Positions 1,166 to 64,000 of a DNA stretch of 64,000 nucleotides are shown in pieces. The position numbers and the translations under genes are program-made. The stretch comes from an uncultured bacterium (GTDB taxonomy: Bacteria; Abyssobacteria; SURF-5). The notes under the pieces are model-generated. The model saw only the letters and a program-made list of their open reading frames with translations, was not told the origin of the DNA and did not search any database. Where the stretch lies: NCBI GenBank assembly GCA_964453435.1, contig CAYVQZ010000002.1, forward strand, positions 20,555 to 84,554, read 5' to 3'. Each line of letters opens with the position of its first letter. Position 1 is the stretch's first letter.

Positions 1166-1184
1166 GTATAGGTCCGAAGCAAGC

Positions 1185-1916
1185 TCACCTTTTCGAGGCA
1201 AGCAGCAATATCGAGAGCCCGAACGGAAGATTCATTCTGCGAATAAGCATTTGCTCCAATCGCATGACACCGAGAAGCATCCGGTTCAGGAGACGCCAGT
1301 TCTCATGGTACTGGATACGTCGTGGCGTCGGGTCCCGTTGAAATCTCGCTTTCACAAGCCTGACGGCCGCGACGGGCGCGAAGAGAAAAGAATTGAAGGA
1401 ACTCACTCGAGTCACGAAGAAACCCGCATGTTGCGCCTTGCGGACAAGCTCCGATTTGGAATATCTCCTCTTGTGATGAAGAACGACGTCATGCGCGCTC
1501 CACAGTGTCTGGTACGCGGGCACACTTGCCAGGAGCATGCCTCCGCTTGCTGTCACTCGAAAGATTTCACGCAATACGGACTCATCATCCTCGCAGTGTT
1601 CGAGCAAATCGGCGGCCACGACCATCGCAAACGAGTTGGATTTGAAGGGCATCAAGTCGGCCGATGCCTGACACAGTTTTGAAAAACCAAGGGAACGACA
1701 GTGTGCCAACGCGCCGAGATTCAGATCGATGCCGACCACTGTGCCCGCGTTCGCGAATCTTCTCATCATGGTTCCGGAGCCGCACCCGACATCAAGGACT
1801 GGTTCTCCTCGCAGAGAATCTCGGCCGATGCTTGAGAACAGGATGTCGCGTGTTCCCAAAAACCACCAGTGTTTTTCGGCCAGTTCAAAGAGCGAAGCGT
1901 ATTCTTCCGGATTCAT
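1185..1916 (-). CDS. class I SAM-dependent methyltransferase
   Basis: 243 aa with motif I LDVGCGSG, the acidic loop after beta2 (VGIDLN), and a Methyltransf_11/23-like fold. Its start overlaps the stop of the downstream methyltransferase by 4 bp. Confidence 0.75.
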   Translation of the reverse strand: MNPEEYASLFELAEKHWWFLGTRDILFSSIGRDSLRGEPVLDVGCGSGTMMRRFANAGTVVGIDLNLGALAHCRSLGFSKLCQASADLMPFKSNSFAMVVAADLLEHCEDDESVLREIFRVTASGGMLLASVPAYQTLWSAHDVVLHHKRRYSKSELVRKAQHAGFFVTRVSSFNSFLFAPVAAVRLVKARFQRDPTPRRIQYHENWRLLNRMLLGVMRLEQMLIRRMNLPFGLSILLLASKR

Positions 1917-2812
1917 GGGACGTTTTTCATTTTCGTTGCGTAAACAAGCATTATGTCAAAGGGATTAACATAAATCACGCGATTCCTAATTCCCAGTGTT
2001 CGAGCGAGCCGTTCAAGAAGACGCTGCACCGCCGAACTGTAAATGCCTGTTCGCCTGATGAAGAATCCAACGTCAACATACTTGCCGACGTATGTGAGCC
2101 GGACAGGCTCGAAATGATATTTCGAGAGGAGGCGGGTAATCGTCGATCGCGAGAAGTAAAAGAGATGTTCGCCTTGCTTGATTCCCATCCACCGTGCGCC
2201 CGAGAACCGAGCGACAAGACTCGATATGTCGGGTGTGGTGAGCGCCAGCAATCCGCCGGCTTTGAGCAGACGATTCACCTGTTCCAGTTCCTTGGCCGGA
2301 TTCGGGCAGTGTTCGAGGTAGTCCCACATAGTGACGACGTCAAACGACTCGGGAGGAAAATCCGCTTCCTCCAACTGTCCGCAGAACACCTCGGTTCCTC
2401 GGATGTTTCGGGCGAGTTCACACGCATACTCGGAGATTTCAACTCCCTTCGTTTTCCAGCCCAACCGGTTGGCTACCTCGAGCGAAAAACCGGTGGCGCA
2501 ACCCACATCCAGGAGGCGTCCCTTGTGTTGCAGTAGCGTTTCGATTTCTTGCATCCGCCTCTGAAATGTCTTCTCGATTTTCACGCGGTCGGCCGCGTAG
2601 TCGTCATACCCCAAGGCTCCCGAGTTTGAACTCTTGAAATAGCTTTCGGAGTAGAGCCGGCGAAGTTCGTCTGCGGGGGGAATCTTTTTCGCGCGAACCA
2701 ATCCGCAGTCGACACATTTGACCAAATCCAACTCCGGGTACAGGTAGTTGAGCGATGTGCCGCCGCAGAGGATGCAGGGAGTGGTGTCAGTCGGTGGAGC
2801 GGGGCGACTCAT
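1913..2812 (-). CDS. SAM-dependent methyltransferase with N-terminal Cys4 zinc ribbon (sugar/C-methyltransferase-like)
   Basis: 299 aa. The N-terminus has CILCGG...CVDCG, followed by a Rossmann motif LLDVGCATG and a DYLEH-type motif. The ATGA overlap at 1913-1916 suggests translational coupling to the next methyltransferase. Confidence 0.75.
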   Translation of the reverse strand: MSRPAPPTDTTPCILCGGTSLNYLYPELDLVKCVDCGLVRAKKIPPADELRRLYSESYFKSSNSGALGYDDYAADRVKIEKTFQRRMQEIETLLQHKGRLLDVGCATGFSLEVANRLGWKTKGVEISEYACELARNIRGTEVFCGQLEEADFPPESFDVVTMWDYLEHCPNPAKELEQVNRLLKAGGLLALTTPDISSLVARFSGARWMGIKQGEHLFYFSRSTITRLLSKYHFEPVRLTYVGKYVDVGFFIRRTGIYSSAVQRLLERLARTLGIRNRVIYVNPFDIMLVYATKMKNVP

Positions 2813-3536
2813 AGAGTTTTTTCCAATCGTTCATCCGTATCTTCAATACTTCCCACAACATCGGCAGGGTGTCTCTGAATACGCTGACTTTCGTTGAAGG
2901 CGAATTGTTCCATAATACGCCGATTTCGCCGACACGATATCCATATTTTCGAGCGAGGAAAAGCGCTTCCACATCAAAGCCGAAGCCGTCGAGTTTGGCA
3001 GAGGCAAATATTCGCGCAGCGGAACCGCACGTGAAGAGCTTGAAGCCACATTGAGTGTCATGGATACCGGGGACAGCCGACAAGCGGACTATCGCATTGA
3101 ACACTTTTCCGCTTAGAACCCGGTACCACGGGCGCCAACCCACGATTTTGGAGTCGCTCAACGCTCGCGACCCAACAACCACTTCAAACCCATTCTCCGC
3201 AACTTTCTGAAGCTTATGTAGTTCCTCTATCGGGGTGGCCAGGTCTGCGTCGGTTAGCAGCACATTTTCCGACTCCGCTGCAATAGTTCCCGTCCGCACC
3301 GCATAACCCTTGCCCTGATTCCGGTCATAGCCGATAAGCCGAATACGGGAATCGTTTTCTGCCAAATGCCTCACGATATCAATGGTGGAATCGGTGCTCC
3401 CGTCGCTCACCACAATTATCTCGTGCGCTATACGGGATTTGTTTAAATGCTTGGAAATCTGTTGGATTGTCAAGCCGATTCTTTCGGCTTCGTTATAAGC
3501 GGGAATGACCACGGACAGTTCGGGTTTATGAGTCAT
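2787..3536 (-). CDS. family 2 glycosyltransferase (polyprenyl-phosphate sugar synthase-like, DPM1-like)
   Basis: Motifs LSVVIPAYNE, VVSDGSTDST and the DAD acidic motif are present, with C-terminal similarity to dolichol-phosphate mannosyltransferase-like GT2. The ORF-track entry 2787-3731 has a 65-aa non-homologous N-extension. ATG 3536 begins MTHKPELSVVIP, and TTGTCAT precedes it. Confidence 0.75.
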   Translation of the reverse strand: MTHKPELSVVIPAYNEAERIGLTIQQISKHLNKSRIAHEIIVVSDGSTDSTIDIVRHLAENDSRIRLIGYDRNQGKGYAVRTGTIAAESENVLLTDADLATPIEELHKLQKVAENGFEVVVGSRALSDSKIVGWRPWYRVLSGKVFNAIVRLSAVPGIHDTQCGFKLFTCGSAARIFASAKLDGFGFDVEALFLARKYGYRVGEIGVLWNNSPSTKVSVFRDTLPMLWEVLKIRMNDWKKLYESPRSTD

Positions 3537-3795
3537 AATGCAAGCTATAATTGAGAGGCAAAGTGGATAGCCTTTTTTGTCATCGGAACAAGCCGTGAAC
3601 ATTATACTTGCGGCAAAAATACGTGTCAACCCGCAATGTTTGGAATAAGTGCAGACGAGAACGATGACCCCAAAACCGCGCGTTTCGAGACCACTTCCCC
3701 CTGATGAGGAAAGCATATGAGGACATCCCACTGCCGGGTCCGGTAAACTCTATCCTGTGGCCGCTGTCTTCGCAGACTCGAAATGCCGCGTTGAT

Positions 3796-3824
3796 TTGAC
3801 ATATTTTGTGTCATATGTTATACT
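3796..3824 (+). promoter_or_regulatory. sigma70-type promoter (TTGACA-17-TGtTATACT) upstream of the HU/IHF gene
   Basis: TTGACA at 3796-3801, a 17-bp spacer, and an extended -10 TGTTATACT at 3816-3824, in the divergent region between the GT2 and HU genes. It leaves about a 125-nt leader containing the perfect palindrome ATGCAATATTGCAT (3863-3876). Confidence 0.4.
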
Positions 3825-3957
3825 TATGCCGATTTCGAGCAGTTGCGGTTGCTCGGAAGTTTTTACGCGGTTATGCAATATTGCATACCCCAAATTAAAT
3901 TCGGTTGTTGGCGACGCGTTCAAGTCTCGAAATGGCTGACGAAAGGAGTTCGTTCTC

Positions 3958-8503: not shown

Positions 8504-8939
8504 ATTTTTGTCTCCTCCGGGTGCATGAATGCCGACCGATGCGAAATCTCAACGCTCATGTCTTGTGTTCCAATCTTGCTGTGGTGATTTTTTCAAACCG
8601 GAAGCAGGCTTCCCTCTATCCGATGTCGTTCCCGCAACGGCCTGCTCAATCAAGCTGGCGCAGACTCGCATCCGTGCTCCCTTTTCAGCATACCCAATGT
8701 CAAGATAATCATAAAAGAAGAAGTGTATGAATGCAAGTGGGCTTATGCCGATTCGATGGCTTTGTTAGCGGGACGGAGGGTAGAGATACATGCGGCAGGG
8801 AGTCCTCTGCGAAGGTTTTGTGGTGATATACTAATTTTGGGGACTGACAGACAGCGAGGCGGCAGCGAATAGCTGATGGTTGATTTTCATGTTACAATCT
8901 GATATAGAAAGTAACACAGCACGGCGGAGCCGCAACCAA

Positions 8940-8973
8940 CGGTTATTGAGCAATGCATGGCGTCCCCAATAAC
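8940..8973 (+). repeat. dispersed intergenic repeat, family 2 (GGTTATTG-N19-CAATAACC hairpin containing CATGGCGTCCCCAATAACC), copy 1
   Basis: GGTTATTGAGCAATGCATGGCGTCCCCAATAACC has an 8-bp inverted-repeat stem. Its core matches 37517-37549, 45503-45530 and, in reverse orientation, 40832-40877. Confidence 0.55.
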
Positions 8974-9056
8974 CCTGAAAATACGAGCGAAGCAGCATGG
9001 AACATCACGACAAGAATTCATGAATTTGGCGCTTGGTAATATAAGGGTGTTGGATC

Positions 9057-9953
9057 ATGAACAGGCTCCATGGTTCGCCAAAAGGGTTTACGCTTGTTGA
9101 GCTGCTCGTGGTGATTGCTATCATCGGAATCCTTGCCGCTTTCTTGCTTCCGGCCCTCAGCAAGGCGCGCGAGGCTGCGCGACGCTCCGCCTGCGCAAAT
9201 AACCTGAGGCAGCTCGGGCTTGCGCTGGGCCTGTATGCGTCTGAGAACAGAACGAAATATCCCCCCGTCGAGAACGTGAGTAATAAGTTCATGTTCGATG
9301 CGGGTGGAATGTATCCGGAATATCTCTCCGATGCGTCTATTCTCGCTTGTCCTTCCGACCCCGAATACGACCCAAAAACCAACTTTCGCTTGAAGGCGGA
9401 TGCGATAGTGAGGGAGAACGTTTACGGAGCGCAGACACGGCAATTCAAAGGCGGAACAGTACATCCGGACTGCATTGGACCCGTGAGTTACATATATCTC
9501 GGCTGGCTGGTAATGAATGACAGGGAGCTTCTCTCGGGGGCCGCGATATACACGTGGATGGACTTCGTGCTTCCGATCAGCCACTGGGCAACCGACGGAT
9601 GGCGGGACCGCGAAAGAAACATAGCGTCCTTTGGATTCGCCGGCTCCGGGAATGCCGGAGGTAACCTGCACAGGCGGCTGTCCGAGGATGTTGACAGGTT
9701 CCTTCTTTCTGACATCAATCACGTTCTCAGCAGTGCGAGTTCGGGCGCTAGCAGGGTGCCGGTTATGTGGGACCAACTGTCAACCCACATCAGCGATTTC
9801 AGCCATCTTCCCGCCAGCCAAAATGTATTGTACCTTGACGGGCACGTGGAGCACAAACGCTACGACGACGTGACAACAGAGTTCCCGATTTCTCCACTGT
9901 ATGCGGCTTTTAATGGCGGAGCGAGCTATCGAACGTCGGATTACTGTCATTGA
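9057..9953 (+). CDS. DUF1559 / H-X9-DG family protein with type IV pilin-like N-terminal cleavage/methylation domain
   Basis: N-terminus [56 protein letters not shown] is the prepilin N-methylation motif plus the conserved DUF1559 helix. The C-terminus has H...YLDGHVEH, an H-X9-DG-like motif. Confidence 0.8.
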
Positions 9954-10068
9954 AGGCGCATTGGAAAGAGGAAAAGACGCAAAGCGGTCGCGACAATGTG
10001 CGCCACGTGTCGTCGAAAAACGTTAAGGTAGAGAATCGTTCCGGAGCTACCCGATTGCCTCGGTTTTC

Positions 10069-10896
10069 TCACAGCCCTCTTTCTCTTCTTACTTTGTCCA
10101 CAGTCTTATCCAGAAACCGGTTTACGAGCGAGGGCGCAAGCCTGTTGGCCAGGTTGAACATTTTCCCCGGAAGATTCGGAATGATGATGAAACGACCTTT
10201 CTCCATTCCGTGAATGGCTTCTTTTGCCACTTCCTCCGGCTTCATTAGTTTGGCGCCTTCGGAAATCCTGAGTGTCTCAAGAGGCTTCGCCTTGTTCTCG
10301 TTTTCAAACATCGGGGTATCGACGTCCGGCGGACAGAGCACCGAAACGCCGATTTTGTAGGGACGCAGTTCGCTTCTCAGCGCTTCCGAGAAGCCGACGA
10401 CTGCAAATTTGGAGCCGGAGTAACTCGTATATCCGAAGATGCCTTTCAGACCGCCCAGGCTCGATACATTAAGAATCCACCCCGTCCGTCGTTCAATCAT
10501 TCCGTTGATGACCTGCTTTATCGTGTACACCGTGCCGAGGTAGTTGACTTTCAGCTCGGTCTCCATTGATTCGATGGAAAGGTTTTCCACGTACCCCGGA
10601 TTCACGTAGCCGGCGCAATTTACGAGCATCTGAGTCGGGCCGCAGGCGATTTCGGCCTCCCGTATCGCATTTTCCACAGCCGTAAAATCGGCGACGTCAG
10701 CGGCGCAGCATCCGAACCGTTGTCCGGAGCTTTTGGCGTTTCTTCTAACCTCATCCAAGGCTTCCTTCAAGACATCGTTTCGCCTGGCGATCAGGAAGAC
10801 GTTCGCCTGCCGTTGGGCGAATTCTTTGGCGAGGCACTTCCCGATTCCGCTTGAGCCCCCCGTCACGATGGCGCACTTGTTTGCGAGATTCATCAT
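10069..10896 (-). CDS. short-chain dehydrogenase/reductase, 3-ketodihydrosphingosine reductase (KDSR)-like subfamily
   Basis: 275 aa with TGGSSGIGK, NCAG, YSGSKFA and the segment PPDVDTPMFENENKAKPLETLRISEG, which closely resembles the KDSR motif PPDTDTPGF..ENRTKPLETRLISE. It is a tandem paralog of 11015-11839. Confidence 0.75.
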   Translation of the reverse strand: MMNLANKCAIVTGGSSGIGKCLAKEFAQRQANVFLIARRNDVLKEALDEVRRNAKSSGQRFGCCAADVADFTAVENAIREAEIACGPTQMLVNCAGYVNPGYVENLSIESMETELKVNYLGTVYTIKQVINGMIERRTGWILNVSSLGGLKGIFGYTSYSGSKFAVVGFSEALRSELRPYKIGVSVLCPPDVDTPMFENENKAKPLETLRISEGAKLMKPEEVAKEAIHGMEKGRFIIIPNLPGKMFNLANRLAPSLVNRFLDKTVDKVRRERGL

Positions 10897-11014
10897 TTTT
10901 CATGATTCCGTTGCGACAGTGTATTTTCCTCACGCTTACCCATTGTACCGAGAAATGCCAGCGTGGCGACGCGGTAGCCTATTACGGAATCCCCTCTCTG
11001 TTCACTTGACCGAA

Positions 11015-11839
11015 TCACGCGTCCCGCTCTCTTCGCACCTTGTCGACGGTCTTGTCGATGTACTTGTTGATCAGTGAGGGGGCCAGGCGATTCCCGATAT
11101 GAAGCAGCTTTCCCGCCAGGTTCGGGATGATAAAGAACGAGCCTTTTTCCAGACCCTTTATTGCGGCGCGCGCCACGTCATCCGCATGCATCAGCTTTGC
11201 CGTGTCGGAGATTCTCAGCGTTTCTGGCGGCTTTTCGCGGGTGTCGTTCCTCACCCGTTCCGTGTCGACATCGGGCGGACAAAGAACCGAAACGTGTATT
11301 CCGTGAGGGCGGAGCTCACTGCGGAGGGCTTCCGAGAACCCGATCAGGGCGAATTTCGCTCCCGAATATCCCGCGTAACCGAAAACTCCCTTCAGGCCCG
11401 CGAGACTCGAGATATTCATGATCCATCCCTCACGTCGTTGCATCATGCCCTCGATTACCTGCTTGCAGGTATACACGGTCCCGAGGTAATTCACGCGTAT
11501 CTCTGTTTCGATGTCGGAGATTGGGAGTTTCTCGATGTAGCCACCCAACGAGAAACCGGCCGAGTTGATGAGCAAGGCGGGCGGACCGCATTCTGCTTCG
11601 GCTGCCCGCATGGCCTCCTGCACGGCGGGCAGCTCCGACACGTCGCAGCGGTAATAGCCAAATCTCTGCCTGCTGCTCGAAGCCAGGTGGCGAAAATCGT
11701 CAATCGCCTTCCGGAGAGGAGCCTCTTCTCGCGCCATGATGAAGACATGCGCGCCGCGCCGGGCCAACAGGTCCGCTATGGCCTTTCCGATACCCTTGGA
11801 GCCGCCGGATACGATTGCACATTTGCCGGCTATGTTCAC
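11015..11839 (-). CDS. short-chain dehydrogenase/reductase, KDSR-like subfamily (paralog of 10069-10896)
   Basis: 274 aa, about 55-60% identical by eye to the neighbouring SDR (SGGSKGIGK...NSAG...YSGAKFA...PPDVDTERVRNDTREKPPETLRISD). Confidence 0.75.
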   Translation of the reverse strand: MNIAGKCAIVSGGSKGIGKAIADLLARRGAHVFIMAREEAPLRKAIDDFRHLASSSRQRFGYYRCDVSELPAVQEAMRAAEAECGPPALLINSAGFSLGGYIEKLPISDIETEIRVNYLGTVYTCKQVIEGMMQRREGWIMNISSLAGLKGVFGYAGYSGAKFALIGFSEALRSELRPHGIHVSVLCPPDVDTERVRNDTREKPPETLRISDTAKLMHADDVARAAIKGLEKGSFFIIPNLAGKLLHIGNRLAPSLINKYIDKTVDKVRRERDA

Positions 11840-11872
11840 TTTTCTTCTCCCGGCTGGAAATTGTGAACCACA

Positions 11873-12862
11873 CTATCTGTCCAACCATTGGCCGATGCCT
11901 GATTCGAGCGCCGAATCATAAAGCTTTTTTGCGACAGCTGCATCCTCGACAGCCAGCCCGAGATGCATTGACATAATTCGTTCGTCCGCCGTGTCTCGTC
12001 CGGTCTTCGTCGAACACACGACCTCGGATAAGTCAGCATACAATTCCGAAAACACACCGAAGTATCCCTGCTGCCGATAAAAGCGGAACTGCGGGACATC
12101 GTCAGTGAGAATTTTGTCGAATTCTTCTAATGCGCTGCGGCTCCAGTATGTGTCGAAGTCTACTGGACTCGCGAAGGCGCCTGCTTTGACCCAGCCTGCC
12201 TCTATAGCAGGCTCGGGAACCTTCTTGATCGGTCCCGCGGTGACAATGATGTCCGCCTCGACGATTGTCTCACGAGGGGAGCCGCATTTTTGAAATTGCA
12301 GTTTCGGAAACGTCTCTGACATCTCCGCAACGTATGTTTCGAGCACCTGCGGAGAAATGTCATATGCCATGACGGAATTAAGCGAGGGGAATGCTGCTGT
12401 CATCGCTTCCAGGTGTGAGCGACCCTGTACACCGCAGCCAATAATCGTCAATGTCTGCGGATTGGAATTTGCAAGGTGTTTCGCGGCAACCGCCGAAGCG
12501 GCGGCAGTCCGCATGGCCGTGATCCACGTCGCATCCATAACGGCCAGCGGCATGCCGGTTTCCGGGTCGTTCAAGATAAGAAGGCCGCTGATGTATGGCA
12601 GGGACCTCATCGGATTCTGCGGATAGCCGCTCACCCATTTGAGCGCCGCCGCCTGCAAGGAAGGCACATACGCCGGCATCGCATGAATGAAAGAATCCGG
12701 AAGGGGGTGAATTCCGGGCTTTGGCGGCATTTCAACATTGCCCGCGCCCTTCTCTCGGAAAACCTGCTCCACGACATCCATTATCCGGGTTATCCCGAGA
12801 CCCGTCCGGACAACATCATCTTTCGAAAGATAAAGGATTGGGGATAGATTCTTCTTCGACAT
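11873..12862 (-). CDS. ornithine cyclodeaminase / mu-crystallin family NAD(P)-dependent enzyme
   Basis: 329 aa with a Rossmann GxGxxG (IIGCGVQGRSHL) and OCD-family N-terminal and catalytic segments. It is co-oriented with, and 33 bp upstream of, the two KDSR-like SDRs. Confidence 0.75.
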   Translation of the reverse strand: MSKKNLSPILYLSKDDVVRTGLGITRIMDVVEQVFREKGAGNVEMPPKPGIHPLPDSFIHAMPAYVPSLQAAALKWVSGYPQNPMRSLPYISGLLILNDPETGMPLAVMDATWITAMRTAAASAVAAKHLANSNPQTLTIIGCGVQGRSHLEAMTAAFPSLNSVMAYDISPQVLETYVAEMSETFPKLQFQKCGSPRETIVEADIIVTAGPIKKVPEPAIEAGWVKAGAFASPVDFDTYWSRSALEEFDKILTDDVPQFRFYRQQGYFGVFSELYADLSEVVCSTKTGRDTADERIMSMHLGLAVEDAAVAKKLYDSALESGIGQWLDR

Positions 12863-55044: not shown

Positions 55045-56493
55045 TTAATATTCGCGGCGGTATTTTGAGGAGAGAATGCCGAGTTCCTCCCGATATTTGG
55101 CGGCGGTGCGGCGGGCGATGTTGAGTCCCCTTTTGTTCAAGACCTCGGTAATCTTCTGATCGCTGAGCGGCTTGTGTTTGTTCTCGTTTTCGATAAGTGT
55201 TCGGATCAGTTCCTTGACGCTTGTCGATGAGGTCGCCTCGCCGTCGGAGCTTTCTATCCCGGAAGAGAAGAAGTACTTCAACTCGAAGATTCCCCGCGGC
55301 GACTCCATGTATTTATTGGTGGTCACCCGGCTCACGGTCGACTCGTGCATTCCTATGCGCTCAGCGATTTCCTTCAGAGTCAACGGCTTGAGATAGGCGA
55401 CCCCTCTATCGAAAAATTCTCTTTGGACATCCACAATATTTTCGGCCACCTTCTGAATGGTCTCTTTCCGCTGCTCGATGTTTTTGACCAGCCACTGGGC
55501 GGCCCGAAGCTTGTCGCGCACGTATTCCTTTGTCTGCGGGTTGTCGTTGTATCCTTTGAGGAGTTTCCGGTAAAACGAGCTTATGCGAAGTTTGGGAAGT
55601 CCGTCGTCGTTGATATAGACGACATAATCATTGTCGACCTTTTTGACGATGACGTCCGGCACAACATAAATAACCTCGCGGTTGCCGAAATACCGTCCCG
55701 GCATTGGTTCGAGCGATGCAATGATTGCGGCCAGGTCCTGGACTTCCTGAACCGTTGATTTGAGCGCCTGCGCTATTTTCGGATATTGCTTCTTCGCGAG
55801 TTGCTCAAGGTGGTCCTCAACGATCTTCCGCAAGAGAGGCTTGTCGGGATGCGACGCCTCGATCTGGATTAGCAGGCACTCGCGAAGATCGCGAGCACCG
55901 ATTCCGGTGGGGGTGAACGTGTGGACTATCTTCAGGACGCGCTCGATTTCCTCGGGAGGCACACCCAGCTTCTCTGCTCCGGCCTCGATAGACGAGGAGA
56001 AATAACCGCGTTCGTCGATCTCACTGATAATCCATTCGCCGATCTTGTAGTCTTTCTCGCTGTCGGTGCTCAAAGATAACTGGCTCAGCAGATTCTTGTT
56101 CATCGACTCCGGCTCGGCGGCCGTATTCTCAATGAATCCCCTTTTGCCGTCCTCGTCGCCGACGCTGAAATCGCGCCCTTCATAATAATAATCGTTATAG
56201 GACGCCATCAGGTTTTCGAGTTCTTTGTCGATATCACGCTGCTTGTCGTCGAGTTCGCGCGTTTCTCCGTCCGATGATTCGGGTTCCGCCGTCTGGTCGC
56301 CGGCCGATGGAACTTCCATTTCCTGGGTCTGGCTGGGCTCTTCCTCCAAAAGGAAATTTTCCGTAAGCTGTTGCTGGATATATTTTTCCAGTTCGAGCGT
56401 GGAAAGCTGCAATATCTCGATGGCCTGCTGCATCTTAGGGGTCAGTATCATCTGCTGTACTGTCCCCTGAATCAGTGTCTGTTGGAGCGCCAT
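55045..56493 (-). CDS. rpoN: RNA polymerase sigma-54 factor
   Basis: 482 aa with a Gln/Leu-rich N-terminal region I (MALQQTLIQGTVQQMILTPKMQQAIEILQLSTLELEKYIQQQL), an acidic region II, and the C-terminal RpoN box ARRTAAKYRE. Confidence 0.85.
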   Translation of the reverse strand: MALQQTLIQGTVQQMILTPKMQQAIEILQLSTLELEKYIQQQLTENFLLEEEPSQTQEMEVPSAGDQTAEPESSDGETRELDDKQRDIDKELENLMASYNDYYYEGRDFSVGDEDGKRGFIENTAAEPESMNKNLLSQLSLSTDSEKDYKIGEWIISEIDERGYFSSSIEAGAEKLGVPPEEIERVLKIVHTFTPTGIGARDLRECLLIQIEASHPDKPLLRKIVEDHLEQLAKKQYPKIAQALKSTVQEVQDLAAIIASLEPMPGRYFGNREVIYVVPDVIVKKVDNDYVVYINDDGLPKLRISSFYRKLLKGYNDNPQTKEYVRDKLRAAQWLVKNIEQRKETIQKVAENIVDVQREFFDRGVAYLKPLTLKEIAERIGMHESTVSRVTTNKYMESPRGIFELKYFFSSGIESSDGEATSSTSVKELIRTLIENENKHKPLSDQKITEVLNKRGLNIARRTAAKYREELGILSSKYRREY

Positions 56494-56560
56494 TTCCTTA
56501 CCTTGGTATCGGCTTTGTTCCTTTGTTCTACCGTGATAATTTTACCCCAACTTCGGTCTT

Positions 56561-56597
56561 TTGTCAATTGACAACGCGCGCCCGTCACTGGTATACT
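56561..56597 (+). promoter_or_regulatory. candidate sigma70 promoter (TTGACA-18-TATACT) whose -35 lies inside a perfect 14-bp palindrome TTGTCAATTGACAA
   Basis: The palindrome is at 56561-56574, with TTGACA at 56568-56573 and TATACT at 56592-56597. It sits in the divergent region between rpoN and the MBL-fold gene. Confidence 0.35.
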
Positions 56598-56642
56598 GCG
56601 GCAAACAAGCCTGGTTGCCTCGCTCAAGATTTTGTGTTCCAA

Positions 56643-57443
56643 ATGCCAAACACGACGCTTTCTCACAAGATTTGGGTTCGCGTGCTCGCCAGCGGAAGTC
56701 GTGGCAACTCGATTCTGGTTTCCTCCCGCAACTCCAACTTCCTTGTCGATGCGGGGCTCAGTTGCAAAGAGTTGGCGCGCCGCCTCGCCCGGGTGGGTTT
56801 AACTCCCGGTGACCTCTCGGCGGTCGTGGTCACCCACGAACATCAGGACCATATCCGCGGAATCGGAGTCCTTTCCCGCCAGTACCGGGTTCCCATATTC
56901 ATGAACGCCGCAACCCTGAGGGCTGCGACGTCGCATGTCGGAGATATACCGAGCGCGCAAACGTTTTCGACCGGTGACGTTCTGTCATTGGCCGGTCTGA
57001 CCGTTCAAACGTATCCGGTTCCGCACGATGCCGCCGATCCGGTGGGACTGAGTATCCAGAACTCTTCGCGACGCATCGGCGTGGCTCTTGACATGGGGTA
57101 TCCGACGAAACTGGTCAAACAGCGCCTTCGGGATTCAAATTTGTTGATTCTCGAGTTCAATCACGACCCGCTTATGCTTCGGGGCTGTTCCCGGCCCTGG
57201 GAGATAAAGCAGAGGATACTCAGCAAAACCGGCCACATGTCGAATGACGCCGCGCTTGCATTGCTTTGCGAGTTGATGCATAACGGACTGCGCGATGTCG
57301 TGCTGGCTCACATCAGCCGCGAGGCGAACTGCCCCCATCGCGCCTCCGCCCTGGTGTCGGAGCGGCTCGCCGGAATGGGTCGCGCCGACATTCGGATACA
57401 TGTGGGGGACCAGGATGAAGTCGGAAACCGGATAGATGCGTAA
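56643..57443 (+). CDS. MBL-fold metallo-hydrolase (YycJ/WalJ-like)
   Basis: The start was moved to ATG 56643 (MPNTTLSHKIWVRVLASGSRGNSILV...). It has the HxHxDH motif THEHQDH and downstream metal-binding residues D/H. The track ORF carries a 56-aa extension. Confidence 0.75.
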   Translation: MPNTTLSHKIWVRVLASGSRGNSILVSSRNSNFLVDAGLSCKELARRLARVGLTPGDLSAVVVTHEHQDHIRGIGVLSRQYRVPIFMNAATLRAATSHVGDIPSAQTFSTGDVLSLAGLTVQTYPVPHDAADPVGLSIQNSSRRIGVALDMGYPTKLVKQRLRDSNLLILEFNHDPLMLRGCSRPWEIKQRILSKTGHMSNDAALALLCELMHNGLRDVVLAHISREANCPHRASALVSERLAGMGRADIRIHVGDQDEVGNRIDA

Positions 57444-58785
57444 GGACACACATCCCGCCGGCTCGATACAAGACAATTCCCGGAAGAAGATTGAAACGAT
57501 GAGTTCGGCGGCAGACCTATCCCCTGCGGAGCTGCCGTGGTCTCTCTACGGCTCTTTTGCGAAGCTGGTGGGTTTCCCTCTAAAAATCTGTGGAGTCAAC
57601 GGTCATCCTCTCGAAGGCGTCCAACAATTGCCCGTCAGTGGTCCGTGCGAGGCTTTGAGAAGAGGCGGACTCTTTTCCGAGCAATGCGCCAGGAACCATG
57701 CGGAAGCCGCCGCTATGGCAATCGAGTTGCAACGTCCGTACATTTACAATTGCCATATGCGTCTGGCGGGATGGGCGATTCCCATCATTCGGGAAGGGCA
57801 AGCGCTTCCCGTCGTCATCATCTGTGGAGGGGTGCTGCTTACAGAACCCGATATGGCGCTGATCAGACATTTGGAGCGGCAAGCGATCGAGAACGGTGCG
57901 GACCCCGCTCTCCTGGCGCTCTCTCTCCGTATGGTTCCCGTAATTTCGCGCAGCAAGTTTCGCGAAGCCGCCGAATATCTTTTCGAAATGTCGGATGCCC
58001 TGCTGACATCGCGGGCCATGAAAGAGCCGGGTGGGCAGACCGCTCCACCTCCGCCGCCCGCGGCCTCTGTCGTGTTTCCCCCAGGGCAAAAGAAGGAAAG
58101 CAGACGAGCGAAGCTTCGGAATGCGGAAGAACTGACCAGGCAGAATCTGGAAATTGAAGCAATCCGATGTATGCGCGACCGGAAGCCTGACGATGCGCGC
58201 CGAATTTTGCTCGAAATACTTCATCGGGAGCTTCGGAGCGCGCCGGCATCCGGAGCGGCGGCTAATCTGATTCTGGCGGAAATATTCGCGCGTCTTTTTC
58301 GAAAGGCGGGACATGAGAAGCGAATTTCGCGGCTCGTTCACGACAAACAAAGCCGTTTTCTCAAGGAAGTCCTTTCACAAGGCGAAACCGAAGACATTTT
58401 TGATGACTTCAAACGATTATGCAAAAAGTTCGTTTCCATTGCCGAGGAAACGGCGGGCGAATCACGTTCTCGACACGTGAAGGCAATCCAAAACTATATC
58501 GAGAAGAACCTTGGGAAGAAGCTGACGCTGCAAACGGTGGGCAGGAAATTCGGCCTCACCGAGAAAGCGCTGAATGACATCATACGGAGAGCGTGCGGGA
58601 TGAGCTTTACCGATTACGTCGCTTCCCTGCGGGTGTTCGAAGCGAAACACTTGCTCTCAACGACGAACCTGGGAATCGGCGAGGTCGCGCATCGGACCGG
58701 CTTTCCCGACCAGAGCTATTTCACGAAGGTGTTCAAATCACAGCTTGGCGTCACACCCACAGAGTTCCGGCACGGGAGCGAATGA
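57436..58785 (+). CDS. AraC family transcriptional regulator with N-terminal PocR-like sensory domain
   Basis: The C-terminus has a dual HTH_AraC domain (LTLQTVGRKFGLTEKALNDIIRRACGMSFTDYV...IGEVAHRTGFPDQSYFTKVFKSQLGVTPTEFR). The N-terminal ~170 aa (C-rich: ICGVNG...GPCEAL...YNCHMRLAGWAIPI) resemble a PocR ligand-sensing domain. The likely start is ATG 57499. Confidence 0.7.
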   Translation: MRKDTHPAGSIQDNSRKKIETMSSAADLSPAELPWSLYGSFAKLVGFPLKICGVNGHPLEGVQQLPVSGPCEALRRGGLFSEQCARNHAEAAAMAIELQRPYIYNCHMRLAGWAIPIIREGQALPVVIICGGVLLTEPDMALIRHLERQAIENGADPALLALSLRMVPVISRSKFREAAEYLFEMSDALLTSRAMKEPGGQTAPPPPPAASVVFPPGQKKESRRAKLRNAEELTRQNLEIEAIRCMRDRKPDDARRILLEILHRELRSAPASGAAANLILAEIFARLFRKAGHEKRISRLVHDKQSRFLKEVLSQGETEDIFDDFKRLCKKFVSIAEETAGESRSRHVKAIQNYIEKNLGKKLTLQTVGRKFGLTEKALNDIIRRACGMSFTDYVASLRVFEAKHLLSTTNLGIGEVAHRTGFPDQSYFTKVFKSQLGVTPTEFRHGSE

Positions 58786-58830
58786 GCGAGCAATCCCACG
58801 GGCTCCGACGGAAAGAAAGGAATCGGACAG

Positions 58831-59184
58831 ATGCTCAAGGTTGTGTATTGTCTCCGGCGGAAACGGGAAATGTCGCGCGGAGAATTTCAGAAGTACTGGC
58901 TTGAAACGCATGCGGAGTTCGGAAAAAACATTCCCGGCGTGAAACGATATGTCCAAGTGCACACGCTCGACGGCGAAATGCAGGAAATGATGGCGGCCGG
59001 GCACCCCGCGGGAAGAAACGAGCCGTTTGACGGCGTGGCCGAGCTGTGGTTTGAAGAGGAAGATTTGCGAAAGCTGCCCGGAACGGAGGGAGCGCTCGCC
59101 GCCGTTCAGGACGAAGCCAACTTCATCGATTTCGAACGGTCCGTCATATTCCTGGCAAGGGAACACGTCATAGTGGGCGATTAG
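58831..59184 (+). CDS. EthD/Dabb-like (dimeric alpha+beta barrel) small protein
   Basis: 117 aa, MLKVVYCLRRKREMSRGEFQKYWLETHAEF..., with a pattern matching the EthD family ferredoxin-like fold. Confidence 0.55.
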   Translation: MLKVVYCLRRKREMSRGEFQKYWLETHAEFGKNIPGVKRYVQVHTLDGEMQEMMAAGHPAGRNEPFDGVAELWFEEEDLRKLPGTEGALAAVQDEANFIDFERSVIFLAREHVIVGD

Positions 59185-59393
59185 CGGTCGGATGGAAGTA
59201 TGGGCGTGTCCGCTCGGCTCTCAGTGTTCGCATTGGGGGCAGAAAACCTGTTTCGCGGTTGCGCATGCTGACAAAAAAACCATTGTGCCCAATTGCGGAA
59301 TCCCTTCGGAAGGCGCCAATTCCTTCGCACAATTCGAATACGACCGGACGGCCGGCTTTTTGATGTGTTGAATTTGGCCGAATGAATCCAGCC

Positions 59394-60518
59394 CTACTGT
59401 TGGATTAGTGTTCGCGCGATGATGTATCGCTGAATCTCCGATGTGCCGTCCCAGATTCGCCCCAGACGCGCATCCCGGTAAAAACGCTCGACGGGCGTTC
59501 CCTTGAGCAGACCGTTCGCTCCATGTATCTGCAGAGCCCTGTCGGCGACGCGCCACGCCATCTCCGATGCGAAGAGCTTGACCATCGAGGATTCCAGCGT
59601 TGTCCTCTCGCCTCTGTCCAGCTTTCGGGCGGCATCGTATACCATCAGCCGGGCGGCGTGCAGTTCGGTCGCCATGTCCGCAAGCATGCATTGGATTGCC
59701 TGAAACTCTCCTATCGGTTTTCCGAATTGTTTGCGTTTGCTCGCGTATTCGACCGAAAGCTCCAGAAGTTTCTGTGATGCGCCAATCGCAACGGCCCCGA
59801 TGAACTGCAACCGGCCGGCATCGAGGCCGCCCATCGCGACGAGAAATCCCTGGCCCTCCTCGCCAACGAGGTTTTCCGCCGGCGTCTCGCAGTCCTCGAA
59901 ACGAAGGCGCGCCGTCGGCATGCCCCGCAACCCCATCTTTGGCTGAACCGCGTCGACGGAAAAACCCGGGAACGCGCGTTCCACGATAAATGCGCTGATT
60001 CCGCCCCGCGCGCGTTTCTCCGGATCGGTCACCGCGAAGACGAGATGCAGGTCGTTCACGCTGCCGTTCGAGATCATGTGCTTCGTGCCATTGAGATAGT
60101 AATAATCTCCTCGGCGCTCGGCCCGTGTCTGTATGTTGGCCGCGTCGCAACCCGCCTCCGGCTCGCTCAACGCGAAATCCGCCCTCGACTCGCCGCGTGC
60201 GATTTTCGGGAAATATTTCTCCTTGAGTTTTTCCGAACCGAAATTCGCCAGCCCCGCGATGGAGCCGCCGACGAACCGTACGACCGACTGGTTCACGCGC
60301 GCCAGCTCCTCGGTGACGACGCACAGCTCGACCATGCTTAACCCCATGCCGCCATATTCCTTCGGGATGCCGATTCCGTGCAGTCCCATCTCGGCTATCT
60401 TTTTTGCAAGTGCGGGTGGAATCGAATCGGTTTCCTCGATCTCATTCGAAAACGGTTCCACCTCTGTCTCGACAAAATTCCGAATTTTCGCTCGCAAAGC
60501 TTCAAGGTTCTCGTTCAC
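59394..60518 (-). CDS. acyl-CoA dehydrogenase
   Basis: 374 aa with ACAD N-terminal, middle (FALSEPEAGCDAAN, YYLNGTKHMISNG) and C-terminal (catalytic E in YASKRKQFGKPIGEFQAIQ...) domains. Confidence 0.85.
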   Translation of the reverse strand: MNENLEALRAKIRNFVETEVEPFSNEIEETDSIPPALAKKIAEMGLHGIGIPKEYGGMGLSMVELCVVTEELARVNQSVVRFVGGSIAGLANFGSEKLKEKYFPKIARGESRADFALSEPEAGCDAANIQTRAERRGDYYYLNGTKHMISNGSVNDLHLVFAVTDPEKRARGGISAFIVERAFPGFSVDAVQPKMGLRGMPTARLRFEDCETPAENLVGEEGQGFLVAMGGLDAGRLQFIGAVAIGASQKLLELSVEYASKRKQFGKPIGEFQAIQCMLADMATELHAARLMVYDAARKLDRGERTTLESSMVKLFASEMAWRVADRALQIHGANGLLKGTPVERFYRDARLGRIWDGTSEIQRYIIARTLIQQ

Positions 60519-60673
60519 GGGACCTCTCCGGATTTCAGCGCTTGCGGGATACTAATGCACTTTCATTGTGGGCGTCATTATACCACCTAATTCCCTGCGC
60601 TGCGCATCAGCGATGTTTGTTTGCGCTCCTTACAAAGCTTTGTTATTCTTGTTGCAGGTATTATCCTTAGGTT

Positions 60674-61672
60674 ATGTTCTTGCGATACTTGCGGGAGGTG
60701 AATCCTACATTGGAGGCCGATTTGCAACTGGAACTCTATCGGAAAATGGTGCTTATACGCCGGTTCGAAGAGAAAACGAACCAAATGTATCAAAAAGGGA
60801 AAATAACGGGGTTTTGTCATCTCTACATCGGCCAGGAGGCCGTCGGGATAGGAGCGATTTCGGCGATCCGCGACACCGATTACGTTGTCACGGGTTACCG
60901 CGAGCACGGACAGGCCATTGCCAAAGGCATTGACCCGAAACTGGTGATGGCGGAACTGTACGGCAAGGAGGCGGGCATCTCGAAAGGGAAAGGCGGCTCC
61001 ATGCACATTTTCAGCCCTGAGAAGCGGTTCCTGGGAGGTGACGCGATTGTCGCCGGCAACCTTCCCATCGGGGTAGGCGCCGGCGTCGCGATAAAGTATC
61101 GGAAAAGCGATGACATCGTGCTCGCGTTCTTCGGCGATGGAGCCGTGAATGAAGGCGCGTTCCACGAAGCATTGAATCTGGCCGCCCTGTGGGACCTGCC
61201 GGTCCTGTTCTTCTGCGAAAACAACCGGTACGGAATGGGGACGCCGGTGCATCGCGCCTCTTCGATCGAGGATTTGGCAAAGCGGGCGGCGGCGTATGAC
61301 ATGGATTGGAAGATAATCGATGGAATGGACGTGATTGAGGTGTACGAAACCACGAGGAGGGCCGCCGAGCGCGTCAGAACACAGCATCGGCCGGAATTGC
61401 TCGAAGCCAAAACGTACCGCTTCAAGGGGCATTCTGTTGCTGACCCCGAGGTGTACAGGTCGAAGGAGGAAGTCGAGAAATGGAAGGAACGCGATCCCGT
61501 CATCATGTTCGAGAACAAGTTAAAGGGTGAAGCGGTTTTGAATGCCCAGCAGATTAAACAGATACGAGACGAGGCGGAAAAAATTGTGAATGAAGCGATC
61601 GAGTTTGCCGAGCAAGCCGAGTTTCCGCCGGCTTCGGCGATATGCGAACACGTCTACGCGGGGAAATTCTGA
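60674..61672 (+). CDS. pdhA: pyruvate (2-oxoacid) dehydrogenase E1 component alpha subunit
   Basis: 332 aa with the TPP-binding motif GDGAVNEGAFHEALNLAALWDLPVLFFCENNRYGMGT and the phosphorylation-loop-like region YRFKGHSVAD. Confidence 0.85.
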   Translation: MFLRYLREVNPTLEADLQLELYRKMVLIRRFEEKTNQMYQKGKITGFCHLYIGQEAVGIGAISAIRDTDYVVTGYREHGQAIAKGIDPKLVMAELYGKEAGISKGKGGSMHIFSPEKRFLGGDAIVAGNLPIGVGAGVAIKYRKSDDIVLAFFGDGAVNEGAFHEALNLAALWDLPVLFFCENNRYGMGTPVHRASSIEDLAKRAAAYDMDWKIIDGMDVIEVYETTRRAAERVRTQHRPELLEAKTYRFKGHSVADPEVYRSKEEVEKWKERDPVIMFENKLKGEAVLNAQQIKQIRDEAEKIVNEAIEFAEQAEFPPASAICEHVYAGKF

Positions 61673-62658
61673 TGGCCGAACTGAGATATCGAGAAGCATT
61701 ACGGGATGCGCATGCGGAAGAGATGCGGCGCGACGAACGAGTTTTTGTGATGGGCGAGGAGGTCGCCGTGTGGGGCGGGTCGTTCAAGGTCACCGAGGGC
61801 CTGCTCGAGGAATTCGGAGAAGAGCGCGTTCGAGACACCCCTATTTCCGAAGAGGTTATCGTCGGCGCCGGCATAGGCGCGGCGATGGTCGGCCTCAGAC
61901 CAATCGTCGAATTGATGACGGTCAATTTCTCGCTCCTCGCGATGGACCAGATCATTAACCATGCCGCGAAATACTATTACATGTCGGGCGGACAGTTCCC
62001 GATCCCGATGGTGATTCGAGCGCCGGGCGGAGCAGGGCATCAACTCGGCGCGCAGCACTCGCAGAACCTGGAGGCGCACTTTGTGCACACGCCCGGCCTG
62101 AAGGTGGTTATGCCCTCGACCCCCGCCGATGCAAAGGGCTTGTTGAAAACGAGCGTGCGCGATGACGACCCGATTGTTTTTCTCGAACACGAAGGGCTGT
62201 ATGCGATGAGGGGGGAAGTCCCCGACGACGATGATTTCACCATCCCCTTGGGAGTCGCCGACATCAAGCGGCAGGGCGACGATGTGACGGTGGTGGCGTA
62301 CTCCCGCATGGTGCACGTCGCGCTCGAAGCCGCCGCGAAGCTTCACGAAGAAGACGGAACCAGCGTTGAAGTCATTGACCCCCGCACCTTGAAACCGTTC
62401 GACATCAATGCGGTTCTTAAATCCATCGAAAAGACCAATCACCTCATAATAGTCGAGGAGGATTGTCGAACGTGCGGAGTGGGAGCGGAAATCGCGGCTT
62501 CCGTCGGCGAGCATGCGTTCTACAATCTCGACGCGCCCGTTCTGAGAATTGCCTCGGCCGACGTTCCCATACCATACTCGAAGCATCTCGAAAAAAGCAC
62601 AATCCCTCAAGTGGACGATGTGGTTCACGCAGTCAGAAAAATCTTGAACCAGAAATAG
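61672..62658 (+). CDS. pdhB: pyruvate (2-oxoacid) dehydrogenase E1 component beta subunit
   Basis: The start ATG 61672 overlaps the pdhA stop (TGATG). The protein MAELRYREALRDAHAEEMRRDERVFVMGEEV... carries transketolase-like pyrimidine-binding and C-terminal domains. Confidence 0.85.
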   Translation: MAELRYREALRDAHAEEMRRDERVFVMGEEVAVWGGSFKVTEGLLEEFGEERVRDTPISEEVIVGAGIGAAMVGLRPIVELMTVNFSLLAMDQIINHAAKYYYMSGGQFPIPMVIRAPGGAGHQLGAQHSQNLEAHFVHTPGLKVVMPSTPADAKGLLKTSVRDDDPIVFLEHEGLYAMRGEVPDDDDFTIPLGVADIKRQGDDVTVVAYSRMVHVALEAAAKLHEEDGTSVEVIDPRTLKPFDINAVLKSIEKTNHLIIVEEDCRTCGVGAEIAASVGEHAFYNLDAPVLRIASADVPIPYSKHLEKSTIPQVDDVVHAVRKILNQK

Positions 62659-62684
62659 AGCTGCGCTTCGGAAAGGGACCCCTC

Positions 62685-63113
62685 ATGTCGAACAAAGTGA
62701 CCGTCCGGTATATCGAGAATCTCCAGCATCAGGTAATTGCGTATCCGCACTCGTTTATCGTCGACGAACCCATGGGCGAGGGCGACGGGCTGGGCGCCAA
62801 TCCGTATGACCTGCTGCTCAGCGCTCTCGGCGCATGCACGGCGATGACGCTCATCATGTATGCGCAACGAAAAAAAATTCCGGTCGAAACCATCAGCGTC
62901 GAACTCGACCATAAACGGACCTACCGCGATGATTGTGAAGGGTGTTCCGAGGAAGAAAGAAGGATGGAGACGATGTCGCGGCATATCACGATTCGGGGTT
63001 CCGTAACAGAAGAGCAGAAGGGGAAATTGCTCGAAATCGCCAGGAAGTGTCCTGTTCACAGGACCATTACTTCCAAGCCGGCAGTCGAGGATACCATCGA
63101 AATATTCGATTAG
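62685..63113 (+). CDS. OsmC/Ohr family (thiol peroxidase-like) protein inserted between E1-beta and E2
   Basis: 142 aa from ATG 62685 (MSNKVTVRYIENLQ...). It has the conserved Cys pair (LGACTAMT... and ...ARKCPVHRT) characteristic of the OsmC fold. Confidence 0.7.
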   Translation: MSNKVTVRYIENLQHQVIAYPHSFIVDEPMGEGDGLGANPYDLLLSALGACTAMTLIMYAQRKKIPVETISVELDHKRTYRDDCEGCSEEERRMETMSRHITIRGSVTEEQKGKLLEIARKCPVHRTITSKPAVEDTIEIFD

Positions 63114-63131
63114 CTCAAAAAGGAGACGGTT

Positions 63132-64000
63132 CATGGCCACTGACGTTGTTATGCCAAAATTGAGCGACACGATGGAGGAAGGCCGCATTATCAAGTGGCT
63201 GAAACAAGTGGGTGACCACGTGAAAGAAGGGGAGCCGCTGCTCGAAGTTGAAACGGACAAGGCGGACATCGAGGTGGAGGCGTTTGATACCGGCTCCTTG
63301 CTCGAGATACTTGTCGATGAGGGCGAGACGATCAAGGTGGGCGAAAAGATTGCCGTCATTGGAGCCGCGGAAGAGGCAAAACCGGCCGAGGAACCGGCAG
63401 AAACGGAAGAAGAAAAAGCAGAAGAAGCCGAGCAGGAAGAAAAGGCCGAAGAAGAAGCCGAGGCGGTAGAAGAACGACCGGCGCCTGAAGCGGAGGAGAA
63501 GATCGAGAAAAAAGAGAAAGAAGAGAAAGAGGCTCCGGCAGAGAAAAAGAAAGAGGAGGAGCGCGCAAAAAAGGAAGAAGAAAAGAAGCGCGCACAGAAG
63601 GAGGAAGAGGAAAGAAAAAAGAAAGAACAGAAAAGAAAAAAGGAAGAAGAGGAAGAGCGCCAAAAAAAGAAGAAGGAAGAAGAAAAAAAGAAAGAGGAAG
63701 AGGAGAAAAAAGCCGAGGTCCCACAGAAAACCGGGAAGGAGCGCAAAGAAGAACAACAGCGTGAACGCGACGTGAAAGTCCATATGGAACAGCGGGAAGC
63801 GATCGAGAAGTTCGTCGCCCGCCCCGCACCCGGAAAAGTGAAGGCATCCCCTCTTGCCAGAGAACTCGCTCAACAGCATGATATCGATCTCTCCGAAGTG
63901 CGGGGCACCGGTCCCGGCGGAGAGATTGTGAAACGGGATATCGAAAAAGTTATCGGCGGTGAGGCGAAGGCGAAGCCGGCGGTCGAAGAAAAACCAACAG
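63132..64000 (+). CDS. dihydrolipoamide acyltransferase (E2) of 2-oxoacid dehydrogenase complex; 3' end beyond window
   Basis: The lipoyl domain MATDVVMPKLSDTMEEGRIIKWLK...ETDKADIEVEAFD contains the lipoyl-Lys. An exceptionally long Lys/Glu-rich linker of about 120 aa follows, then the peripheral subunit-binding domain SPLARELAQQHDIDLSEVRGTGPGGEIVKRDIE. There is no stop before 64000, so it is absent from the ORF track. Confidence 0.8.

Follow-up and report, generated by a model that had tools for sequence, protein, structure and literature searches.

The 64,000 nucleotide (nt) stretch of contig CAYVQZ010000002.1 (assembly GCA_964453435.1) analyzed here, in the following called the window, comes from an uncultured bacterium of the Abyssobacteria lineage SURF-5. 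At its 3' end it carries genes of a pyruvate dehydrogenase (PDH) complex, and between the genes for E1 beta and E2 lies a gene for a small OsmC-like protein of 142 amino acids (aa). We suggest that this protein is likely a functional redox partner, of some kind, of the lipoylated E2 component. In two clades of uncultivated, probably anaerobic bacteria the gene has been kept within PDH operons, at a different position in each, which points to a functional link with the PDH complex. A more specific model, in which the dihydrolipoyl arm of E2 would be the reductant of a lipoyl dependent peroxidase, is put forward tentatively, as we give it somewhat less than an even chance. Related loci used for comparison are designated by L numbers.

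Organization of the operon

The window operon consists of pdhA, pdhB, the OsmC-like gene and pdhC, with no further genes. According to the listing of open reading frames (ORFs) and our reading of the sequence, all four are encoded on one strand. The features are:

60674..61672, plus strand: pdhA, pyruvate dehydrogenase E1 alpha; PF00676 (E1_dh) 313 bits, TIGR03182 (PDH_E1_alph_y) 448.9 bits with a cutoff of 393.85
61672..62658, plus strand: pdhB, E1 beta; Transket_pyr and Transketolase_C, NF006667 453 bits with a cutoff of 321
62659..62684, plus strand: 26 nt gap between pdhB and the OsmC-like gene; purine-rich GGAAAGGGA stretch, no promoter- or terminator-like site
62685..63113, plus strand: OsmC-fold gene, 142 aa; PF02566 71.8 bits, D-C-x-x-C subfamily of the third "Ohr-like/YhfA" group
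63114..63132, plus strand: 19 nt gap between the OsmC-like gene and E2; AAGGAG ribosome binding site 7 nt 5' of the E2 ATG, no terminator
63133..64000, plus strand, truncated by the window end: pdhC, E2 dihydrolipoyl acetyltransferase; Biotin_lipoyl 74 bits, E3_binding 57.5 bits

A preliminary description of this DNA had given the same gene order, with the pdhB ATG overlapping the pdhA stop codon and a 142 aa gene at 62685-63113, and ORFs, Pfam and NCBIfam all confirm it. The ATG of pdhB (61672-61674) has one base in common with the TGA of pdhA (61670-61672). That description had also counted the OsmC-like gene as part of the operon, in agreement with the short gaps on either side of it, where a scan for promoters and terminators found no sites. 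Locus L091 is the same contig continued, identical over the overlap. E2 is complete there, with 565 aa, and is followed by a convergent citrate synthase gene, showing that the operon ends at pdhC.

Conservation of the gene order in two clades

A first clade, T1, was defined as the loci with enough flanking sequence that encode an OsmC-like protein at least 62% identical to that of the window. It comprises eight distinct loci, namely the window (with L091), L001 (Ca. Abyssobacteria SURF_5), L003/L006 and L005, which are metagenome assembled genomes (MAGs) labelled Lindowbacteria and Poribacteria, and L007, L087, L088 and L089. The order E1 alpha, E1 beta, OsmC-like gene, E2 is found in all eight. 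Gaps between E1 beta and the OsmC-like gene are 12-166 nt and those between the OsmC-like gene and E2 are 19-342 nt. The flanking genes vary and E2 is down to 63% identity; the OsmC-like protein (77-82% identity) is as conserved as the E1 subunits. For relatives in this identity range dN is 0.11-0.16 with dS saturated, and dN/dS is approximately 0.05-0.10 where it can be estimated. The OsmC-like gene is real and under strong purifying selection.

The second clade, T2, consists of MAGs labelled Thermodesulfobacteriota, with OsmC-like proteins 61-96% identical to that of L008 and 48% identical to that of the window. Here the gene is located between E1 alpha and E1 beta, in four of four distinct loci (L008, L092, L094 and L095). 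In L008 and L092 its ATG overlaps the E1 alpha stop codon, and E1 beta begins 1 nt past the stop codon of the OsmC-like gene. The gaps around the gene are 12-168 nt and 18-21 nt in L094 and L095. E1 alpha and E1 beta of T2 pass the same PDH-specific models as those of the window. For this reason we rejected the idea, which came from the LipA gene, that T2 is an acetoin dehydrogenase cluster.

Outside the two clades, the closest relatives, with 57-60% identity to the L008 protein, are encoded beside groES/groEL, or beside yjbQ and nuo genes, and not beside PDH genes. A search of metagenome contigs with the single protein gave only one short locus, L086, and no further context. In a first neighbor joining tree L008 was a weak sister of T1. 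A larger, bootstrapped neighbor joining tree (139 columns) recovered T1 and T2 in 100 of 100 replicates each and a T1 plus T2 group in 4 of 100, and a single PDH associated clade was dropped on these grounds. The residues N12, Q14, D34 and G35 are common to T1 and T2 and otherwise uncommon. The sequences would fit either one ancient recruitment followed by rearrangement within the operon, or two recruitments; both histories would argue for selection that keeps the OsmC-like gene with the PDH genes.

The arrangement is beyond chance, since it is kept in eight distinct loci and recurs in a second clade at another position in the same type of operon. The preliminary description had proposed neighborhood conservation as a check of its reading, and such conservation was found.

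Fold and conserved residues of the OsmC-like protein

Active Ohr and OsmC are defined by two Cys together with a catalytic Glu, whose position is fixed, and an Arg that either of two loops may carry (PMC5384416, PMC8945050). In OsmC the Glu is located 10 residues before the peroxidatic Cys (Cp) and the loop that joins beta3 to helix 1 provides the Arg (PMC5384416); in Xylella Ohr the catalytic pair is Arg19, in the beta1-beta2 loop, and Glu51, at Cp-10 (PMC5962072). A third group, "Ohr-like/YhfA", has kept the Cys and lost Arg and Glu. It is poorly characterized and its peroxidase activity is unsettled (PMC5384416, PMC8945050).

The 142 aa protein matches PF02566 over residues 33-134 with an E-value of 6.7e-20, its score standing well above the threshold of 27.5 bits. 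The AlphaFold2 model of the protein has a pLDDT of 90.4, and a Foldseek search against PDB gave 50 matches at E <= 0.001, with TM-scores of 0.55-0.77. All 50 are OsmC, OsmC-like or Ohr by description, or YhfA type hypothetical proteins assigned to the family by Meireles 2017 or the Deinococcus review. The nearest folds are GSU2788 (2opl), Psyc_0566 (2pn2), 2onf, 1lql, 1ml8 and 1vla, with Ta0195, MPN625, TM0919 and YhfA among them. True Ohr and OsmC structures rank lower; Ohr bound to dihydrolipoamide (6ebg) is among the structural matches. A profile search of PDB sequences reached proteins of the third group only and no Ohr structures at E <= 0.001. With 118.7 bits for the single sequence and 181.6 bits for the profile, by far the best PDB sequence match is to the C-terminal domain of 9wo1, a 400 aa entry deposited under the name "Osmotically inducible protein C", on which our literature search gave no paper.

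The two conserved family Cys named in the preliminary description are present. In brief, C51 (codon 62835-62837) and C122 (63048-63050) are invariant across 65 homologues and align with the Cys pair of Thermus thermophilus OsmC (1ukk). C51 is found on helix 1 and C122 at the start of the C-terminal helix, as expected for the Cys pair of the family. Two further conserved Cys, C84 (62934-62936) and C87 (62943-62945), had gone unnoticed. They belong to a D83-C84-x-x-C87 insertion, a loop between two long strands that is common to 9wo1. In the subfamily alignment C51, C84, C87, C122, D83 and H125 are invariant or almost invariant, and the protein also has the subfamily motifs P40-Y41, GACTAMT and KCPVH. 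The protein belongs in the third group, in a subfamily that we name after the D-C-x-x-C motif.

Proposed function

We suggest that the 142 aa protein may act as an OsmC-fold thiol-disulfide redox enzyme that would be co-transcribed, and thus co-produced, with E1 alpha, E1 beta and E2. Turnover of pyruvate by E1 and E2 would leave the lipoyl group of E2 as a dithiol. The dithiol would then reduce the disulfide of an OsmC-like dimer, formed by C51 and C122, the equivalents of the peroxidatic and resolving Cys in Ohr and OsmC, with electrons possibly relayed via the subfamily-specific C84-x-x-C87. In the last step the reduced enzyme would pass the electrons to an oxidant, for which a hydroperoxide (organic or lipid) or H2O2 is most likely. 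The outcome would be protection of an oxygen-sensitive cell and of the lipoyl and thiamine cofactors of the complex itself. What we infer here is that the four genes are co-transcribed, how electrons get from lipoyl-E2 to the protein, and which oxidant is reduced; peroxidase chemistry is plausible.

The proposal of a hydroperoxide reductase fed by lipoyl-E2 draws on the fold and the Cys pair, on the lipoyl dependence of Ohr and OsmC, on a report from Trichomonas and on the embedding of the gene in the operon. According to PMC5384416 and PMC8945050, which cite Cussiol 2010, Ohr and OsmC receive their electrons from lipoylated proteins of 2-oxoacid dehydrogenases. In Trichomonas an Ohr-like protein is reportedly fed by lipoylated H protein and L protein (PMC7946386). 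Abyssubacteria are likely anaerobic and carry both pdh and por genes (PMC6121073), and in such a host it would be reasonable to defend the lipoyl arm locally against oxidants.

Several observations weigh against a lipoyl dependent peroxidase. TIGR03562, the model for OsmC in the strict sense, gives 20 bits with a cutoff of 85.8, and the NCBIfam search gave no match to the Ohr model. The model of an OsmC-related selenoprotein domain gives 44.6 bits with a cutoff of 95, and no NCBIfam model reaches its cutoff. At Cp-10, the residue 10 before C51, the catalytic Glu is replaced by an invariant Tyr41. The subfamily alignment has no conserved catalytic Arg in either the Ohr or the OsmC loop position: loop residues 29-37 include no conserved Arg, the Arg of 1ukk aligns with G31, and R8 is not conserved across the subfamily. 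The conserved D-C-x-x-C motif suggests that the chemistry is extended or altered, for instance by a relay or a metal site. In the third group as a whole peroxidase activity is disputed: one laboratory found the Trichomonas protein, TvOsmC, to be inactive (PMC5384416), and FTN_1133, another OsmC-like protein, had no thiol peroxidase activity (PMC4069020).

The distribution of the subfamily counts on the same side. The D-C-x-x-C subfamily has 1165 representatives at E <= 1e-10 in a library clustered at 50%, and we sampled the context of 78 species-level loci. About two thirds of these (approximately 50 of 78) encode proteins of approximately 405 aa that begin with an alpha/beta-hydrolase domain, and among the top 150 subfamily representatives many are 300-410 aa long. 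The hydrolase-OsmC fusion was confirmed in L009 and L037. The window protein stands alone, without a fused alpha/beta-hydrolase domain. No 2-oxoacid dehydrogenase gene was found within 5 kb of approximately 75 of the 78 other subfamily loci. Most of the subfamily, roughly half or more, is hydrolase-fused, and these members are not encoded near lipoyl enzymes. In L037 (4176-9238) a 405 aa fusion is encoded approximately 600 bp upstream of a distant E1 alpha, E1 beta and E2 set, 30-40% identical to that of the window; this is one of approximately 50 fusions and possibly coincidental.

Judged from its sequence, the protein is a member of the OsmC superfamily and not OsmC or Ohr in the strict sense, because the NCBIfam models fail, the catalytic Glu is replaced by Tyr41 and the catalytic Arg is missing. 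The assignment to the "OsmC/Ohr family" in the preliminary description holds at the level of the superfamily (PF02566) and fails at that of OsmC or Ohr proper. Its idea of a dedicated partner of the complex is strengthened by the conserved gene context as far as a functional link goes, but the label "OsmC/Ohr peroxidase" was too strong.

Alternative explanations

The gene tables of the T1 and T2 loci made with Pfam have no gene of the Pyr_redox_2 type that E3 (lpd) would represent within approximately 6 kb in any locus. The CxxxxC redox motif of Lpd was not found in the 64 kb window or in the T1 and T2 loci; one antisense match to the motif in L008 was judged spurious. The lpd gene may be located elsewhere in the genome. 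These findings would fit a protein that acts as an oxidase of dihydrolipoyl-E2, or as a disulfide relay, passing electrons via C84-x-x-C87 to a protein disulfide or a low molecular weight disulfide, and supplements or replaces E3 where lpd is missing. Such a role would be in line with the additional conserved CxxC, a typical feature of thiol-disulfide exchange proteins, with the lack of the Arg and Glu of the peroxidases, and with the JGI annotation of relatives as "putative redox protein". However, E2 retains its E3-binding domain, lpd is often encoded elsewhere in bacterial genomes, the operon encodes no acceptor, and no oxidase or relay role of this kind is documented for the OsmC fold. We consider this alternative unlikely.

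In another reading, the complex might work as an E3-independent, pyruvate-driven oxidant reductase, with the OsmC-like subunit re-oxidizing the lipoyl arm at the expense of peroxide, another disulfide or another oxidant and the cycle closed without NAD+. If true, a central metabolic complex would become an antioxidant machine and the third OsmC group would gain its first defined physiological partner; we regard this as very unlikely.

The OsmC-like protein could instead serve the maintenance of the lipoyl cofactor, by repair or reduction of oxidized or adducted lipoyl groups on E2, or by handling sulfur or thiols during lipoylation. In L008 (7724-9315) and L092 (8833-10358) the lipoyl synthase LipA (radical SAM and LIAS_N) and a LipB/LplA type ligase are encoded directly after E2, and these two loci are a PDH-OsmC-lipoylation gene cluster. 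In L003 and L004 a DsrE-like gene directly follows E2, and the four conserved Cys would allow chemistry with persulfides or thiols. Against this, neither the T1 loci nor L094 and L095 of T2 have LipA or LipB, and no OsmC-fold protein is known in lipoate assembly. We see only a slight chance for such a role. A paper on a new lipoate assembly pathway mentions OsmC once (PMC10332631). The DsrE-like gene (L003 8281-8619 and L004 7516-7854, both in MAGs labelled Lindowbacteria) encodes 112 aa, starts 4 nt past the E2 stop codon and is another small protein of the sulfur- or thiol-handling kind.

E2 itself has some notable features, one of which bears on a further alternative. Its lipoyl domain, with the lipoyl-lysine K43 in ETDKA (codon 63259-63261), is followed by a long linker and then by the E3_binding domain. 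Usual E2 linkers are short and Ala/Pro-rich. In the window the linker (residues 79-237, 63367-63843) is 159 aa long and consists to 69% of Glu, Lys, Arg and Asp; among T1 relatives its length is 54-159 aa. Opposite the charged linker, long spurious ORFs arise on the minus strand, such as 62625-63746. Directly before the E3-binding domain, at 63769-63843, is a segment (V/I)HME-x-x-EAIEKFVAR-x-APGKV that is conserved in E2 of the window, L003, L005 and L087. The HME-x-x-EAIEKFVAR segment was not found in the extracted linkers of E2 from L089 or from the T2 loci L094 and L095. It could be a docking element.

The OsmC-like protein might be a non-catalytic accessory or regulatory subunit, its four Cys together with D83 and H125 binding Zn or an Fe-S cluster, that forms a structural or redox-sensing element docked on the complex, perhaps at this segment. 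The near invariance of these six residues would be consistent with this, and the translational coupling in T2 implies stoichiometric co-expression. But C51 and C122 occupy the canonical positions of the redox pair of the fold, and the PDB matches offer no precedent for a metal site in OsmC-fold proteins, which makes an accessory subunit improbable in our view.

Finally, there is little likelihood that a general stress gene landed in the operon by chance, without any specific link to PDH: most of the subfamily is indeed found in unrelated contexts, T1 could stem from a single insertion event, and the gaps between the OsmC-like gene and E2 in L003 (342 nt) and L005 (217 nt) leave room for separate signals, but the gene is kept in every T1 and T2 locus read despite the divergence of E2 and the changed flanks, a second clade has it at a different position in the operon with overlapping codons, and the protein is conserved to the same degree as the E1 subunits.

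Flanking genes and further features

The start of pdhA is probably TTG 60722 rather than ATG 60674. ATG 60674 gives the longest ORF and has a poor ribosome binding site; TTG 60722 has GGAGG before it and is the start in the L091 gene call, and relatives align from residue 13. E1 alpha and E1 beta are above the cutoffs of their PDH-specific models, and E2 is marginally below its own: full-length E2 gives 442.6 bits with TIGR01349, its best match, just below the cutoff of 445. Two promoter-like matches were found, both within E2, a count no higher than expected by chance. An Rfam scan of 58000-64000 gave no match.

Upstream of the operon, window positions 55045-60518 encode RpoN (sigma-54, minus strand), a metallo-beta-lactamase-fold protein, a PocR/AraC type regulator, an EthD-domain protein and a divergently transcribed acyl-CoA dehydrogenase. 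The same block precedes the operon in L087. In L089, the most divergent T1 locus, a gene for a 148 aa multi-4Fe-4S ferredoxin (112-558) is located directly upstream of E1 alpha. Downstream of the PDH operon in L005, from a MAG labelled Poribacteria, the region 8638-12432 encodes a 1089 aa Metallophos-NACHT-FGE-sulfatase protein, followed by bAvd and a reverse transcriptase. This region looks like a diversity-generating retroelement cassette.

In T2, locus L095 encodes a flavin reductase-rubredoxin fusion, a thioredoxin-like protein and an FMN reductase upstream of E1 alpha (approximately 1081-3939). Positions 1-4627 of L092, upstream of the operon, harbor dnaK-grpE-dnaJ, a MerR type regulator and a gene for a flavodoxin-like reductase. 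The genes upstream of the T2 operons, in L095 to L098 and in L092, are typical oxidative or heat stress defence genes in anaerobes.

Significance and comparison with known systems

The third, "Ohr-like/YhfA", branch is widespread and has no agreed function or reductant. The OsmC-like gene inside PDH operons is a concrete and testable clue to lipoyl-E2 as its partner. It suggests that some anaerobes that have PDH beside the oxygen-sensitive pyruvate:ferredoxin oxidoreductase, such as Abyssubacteria (PMC6121073), may couple pyruvate oxidation to oxidant defence or shield the lipoyl arm locally. If confirmed, our proposal would extend the link between Ohr/OsmC and lipoyl groups from a promiscuous interaction to a dedicated, operon-encoded subunit, and would open to study the conserved CxxC motif that is common to the larger hydrolase-fusion subfamily.

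The lipoyl dependent thiol peroxidases, such as Ohr of Xylella fastidiosa and OsmC of Escherichia coli, are like the window protein in their fold and in a Cys pair approximately 60-70 residues apart on the same helices. Their known reductants, according to PMC5384416 and PMC8945050, are the lipoyl groups on E2 of 2-oxoacid dehydrogenases. Unlike them, the window protein has no catalytic Glu or Arg, fails the family models and adds the D-C-x-x-C motif. In the literature searched, the stress genes ohr and osmC stand alone or are linked to OhrR, and they are not known from within a pdh operon, where the window gene lies.

The hydrogenosomal "OsmC" of Trichomonas vaginalis is also a third group protein without Arg and Glu, and for this anaerobe peroxide reduction with a lipoylated carrier protein as electron donor has been reported (PMC7946386, PMC5384416). 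It differs in that the carrier is H protein and not E2 of PDH, that it is eukaryotic with no operon, and that its activity was not reproduced by another laboratory (PMC5384416).

Among proteins of solved structure the closest relatives are the alpha/beta-hydrolase-OsmC fusions of the 9wo1 type (approximately 400 aa), which have D-C-x-x-C, GACTAMT and KCPVH in common with the window protein. The latter stands alone in a PDH operon, whereas the sampled fusions, L037 excepted, are encoded away from 2-oxoacid dehydrogenase genes. The proteins with the nearest folds, YhfA, MPN625, TM0919, Ta0195 and GSU2788, contain the two Cys without the Arg and Glu, and no function is known for them. They are only 17-22% identical to the window protein and none is described as linked to PDH. 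In the alignment GSU2788 (2opl) has no D-C-x-x-C at the position where the window protein has it.

The same logic as in our model underlies the AhpC-AhpD-DlaT-Lpd chain of Mycobacterium tuberculosis, where, as Bryk et al. reportedly found in 2002, the lipoyl arm of DlaT feeds a small CxxC adaptor that supports peroxide reduction. AhpD differs in having another fold, in needing AhpC as the peroxidase and in being encoded with ahpC and not inside a pdh operon.

The full text literature that we searched, including the Abyssubacteria genome paper, does not describe an OsmC-like gene in a PDH operon; most subscription journals are outside this coverage and an earlier mention is possible. That the lipoyl arm of PDH E2 can feed a small Cys protein for oxidant defence is already known, from Ohr and OsmC and from AhpD and DlaT. 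What appears to be new is a D-C-x-x-C partner from the third group that is encoded inside the PDH operon itself, in two clades and at two positions, in operons without lpd.

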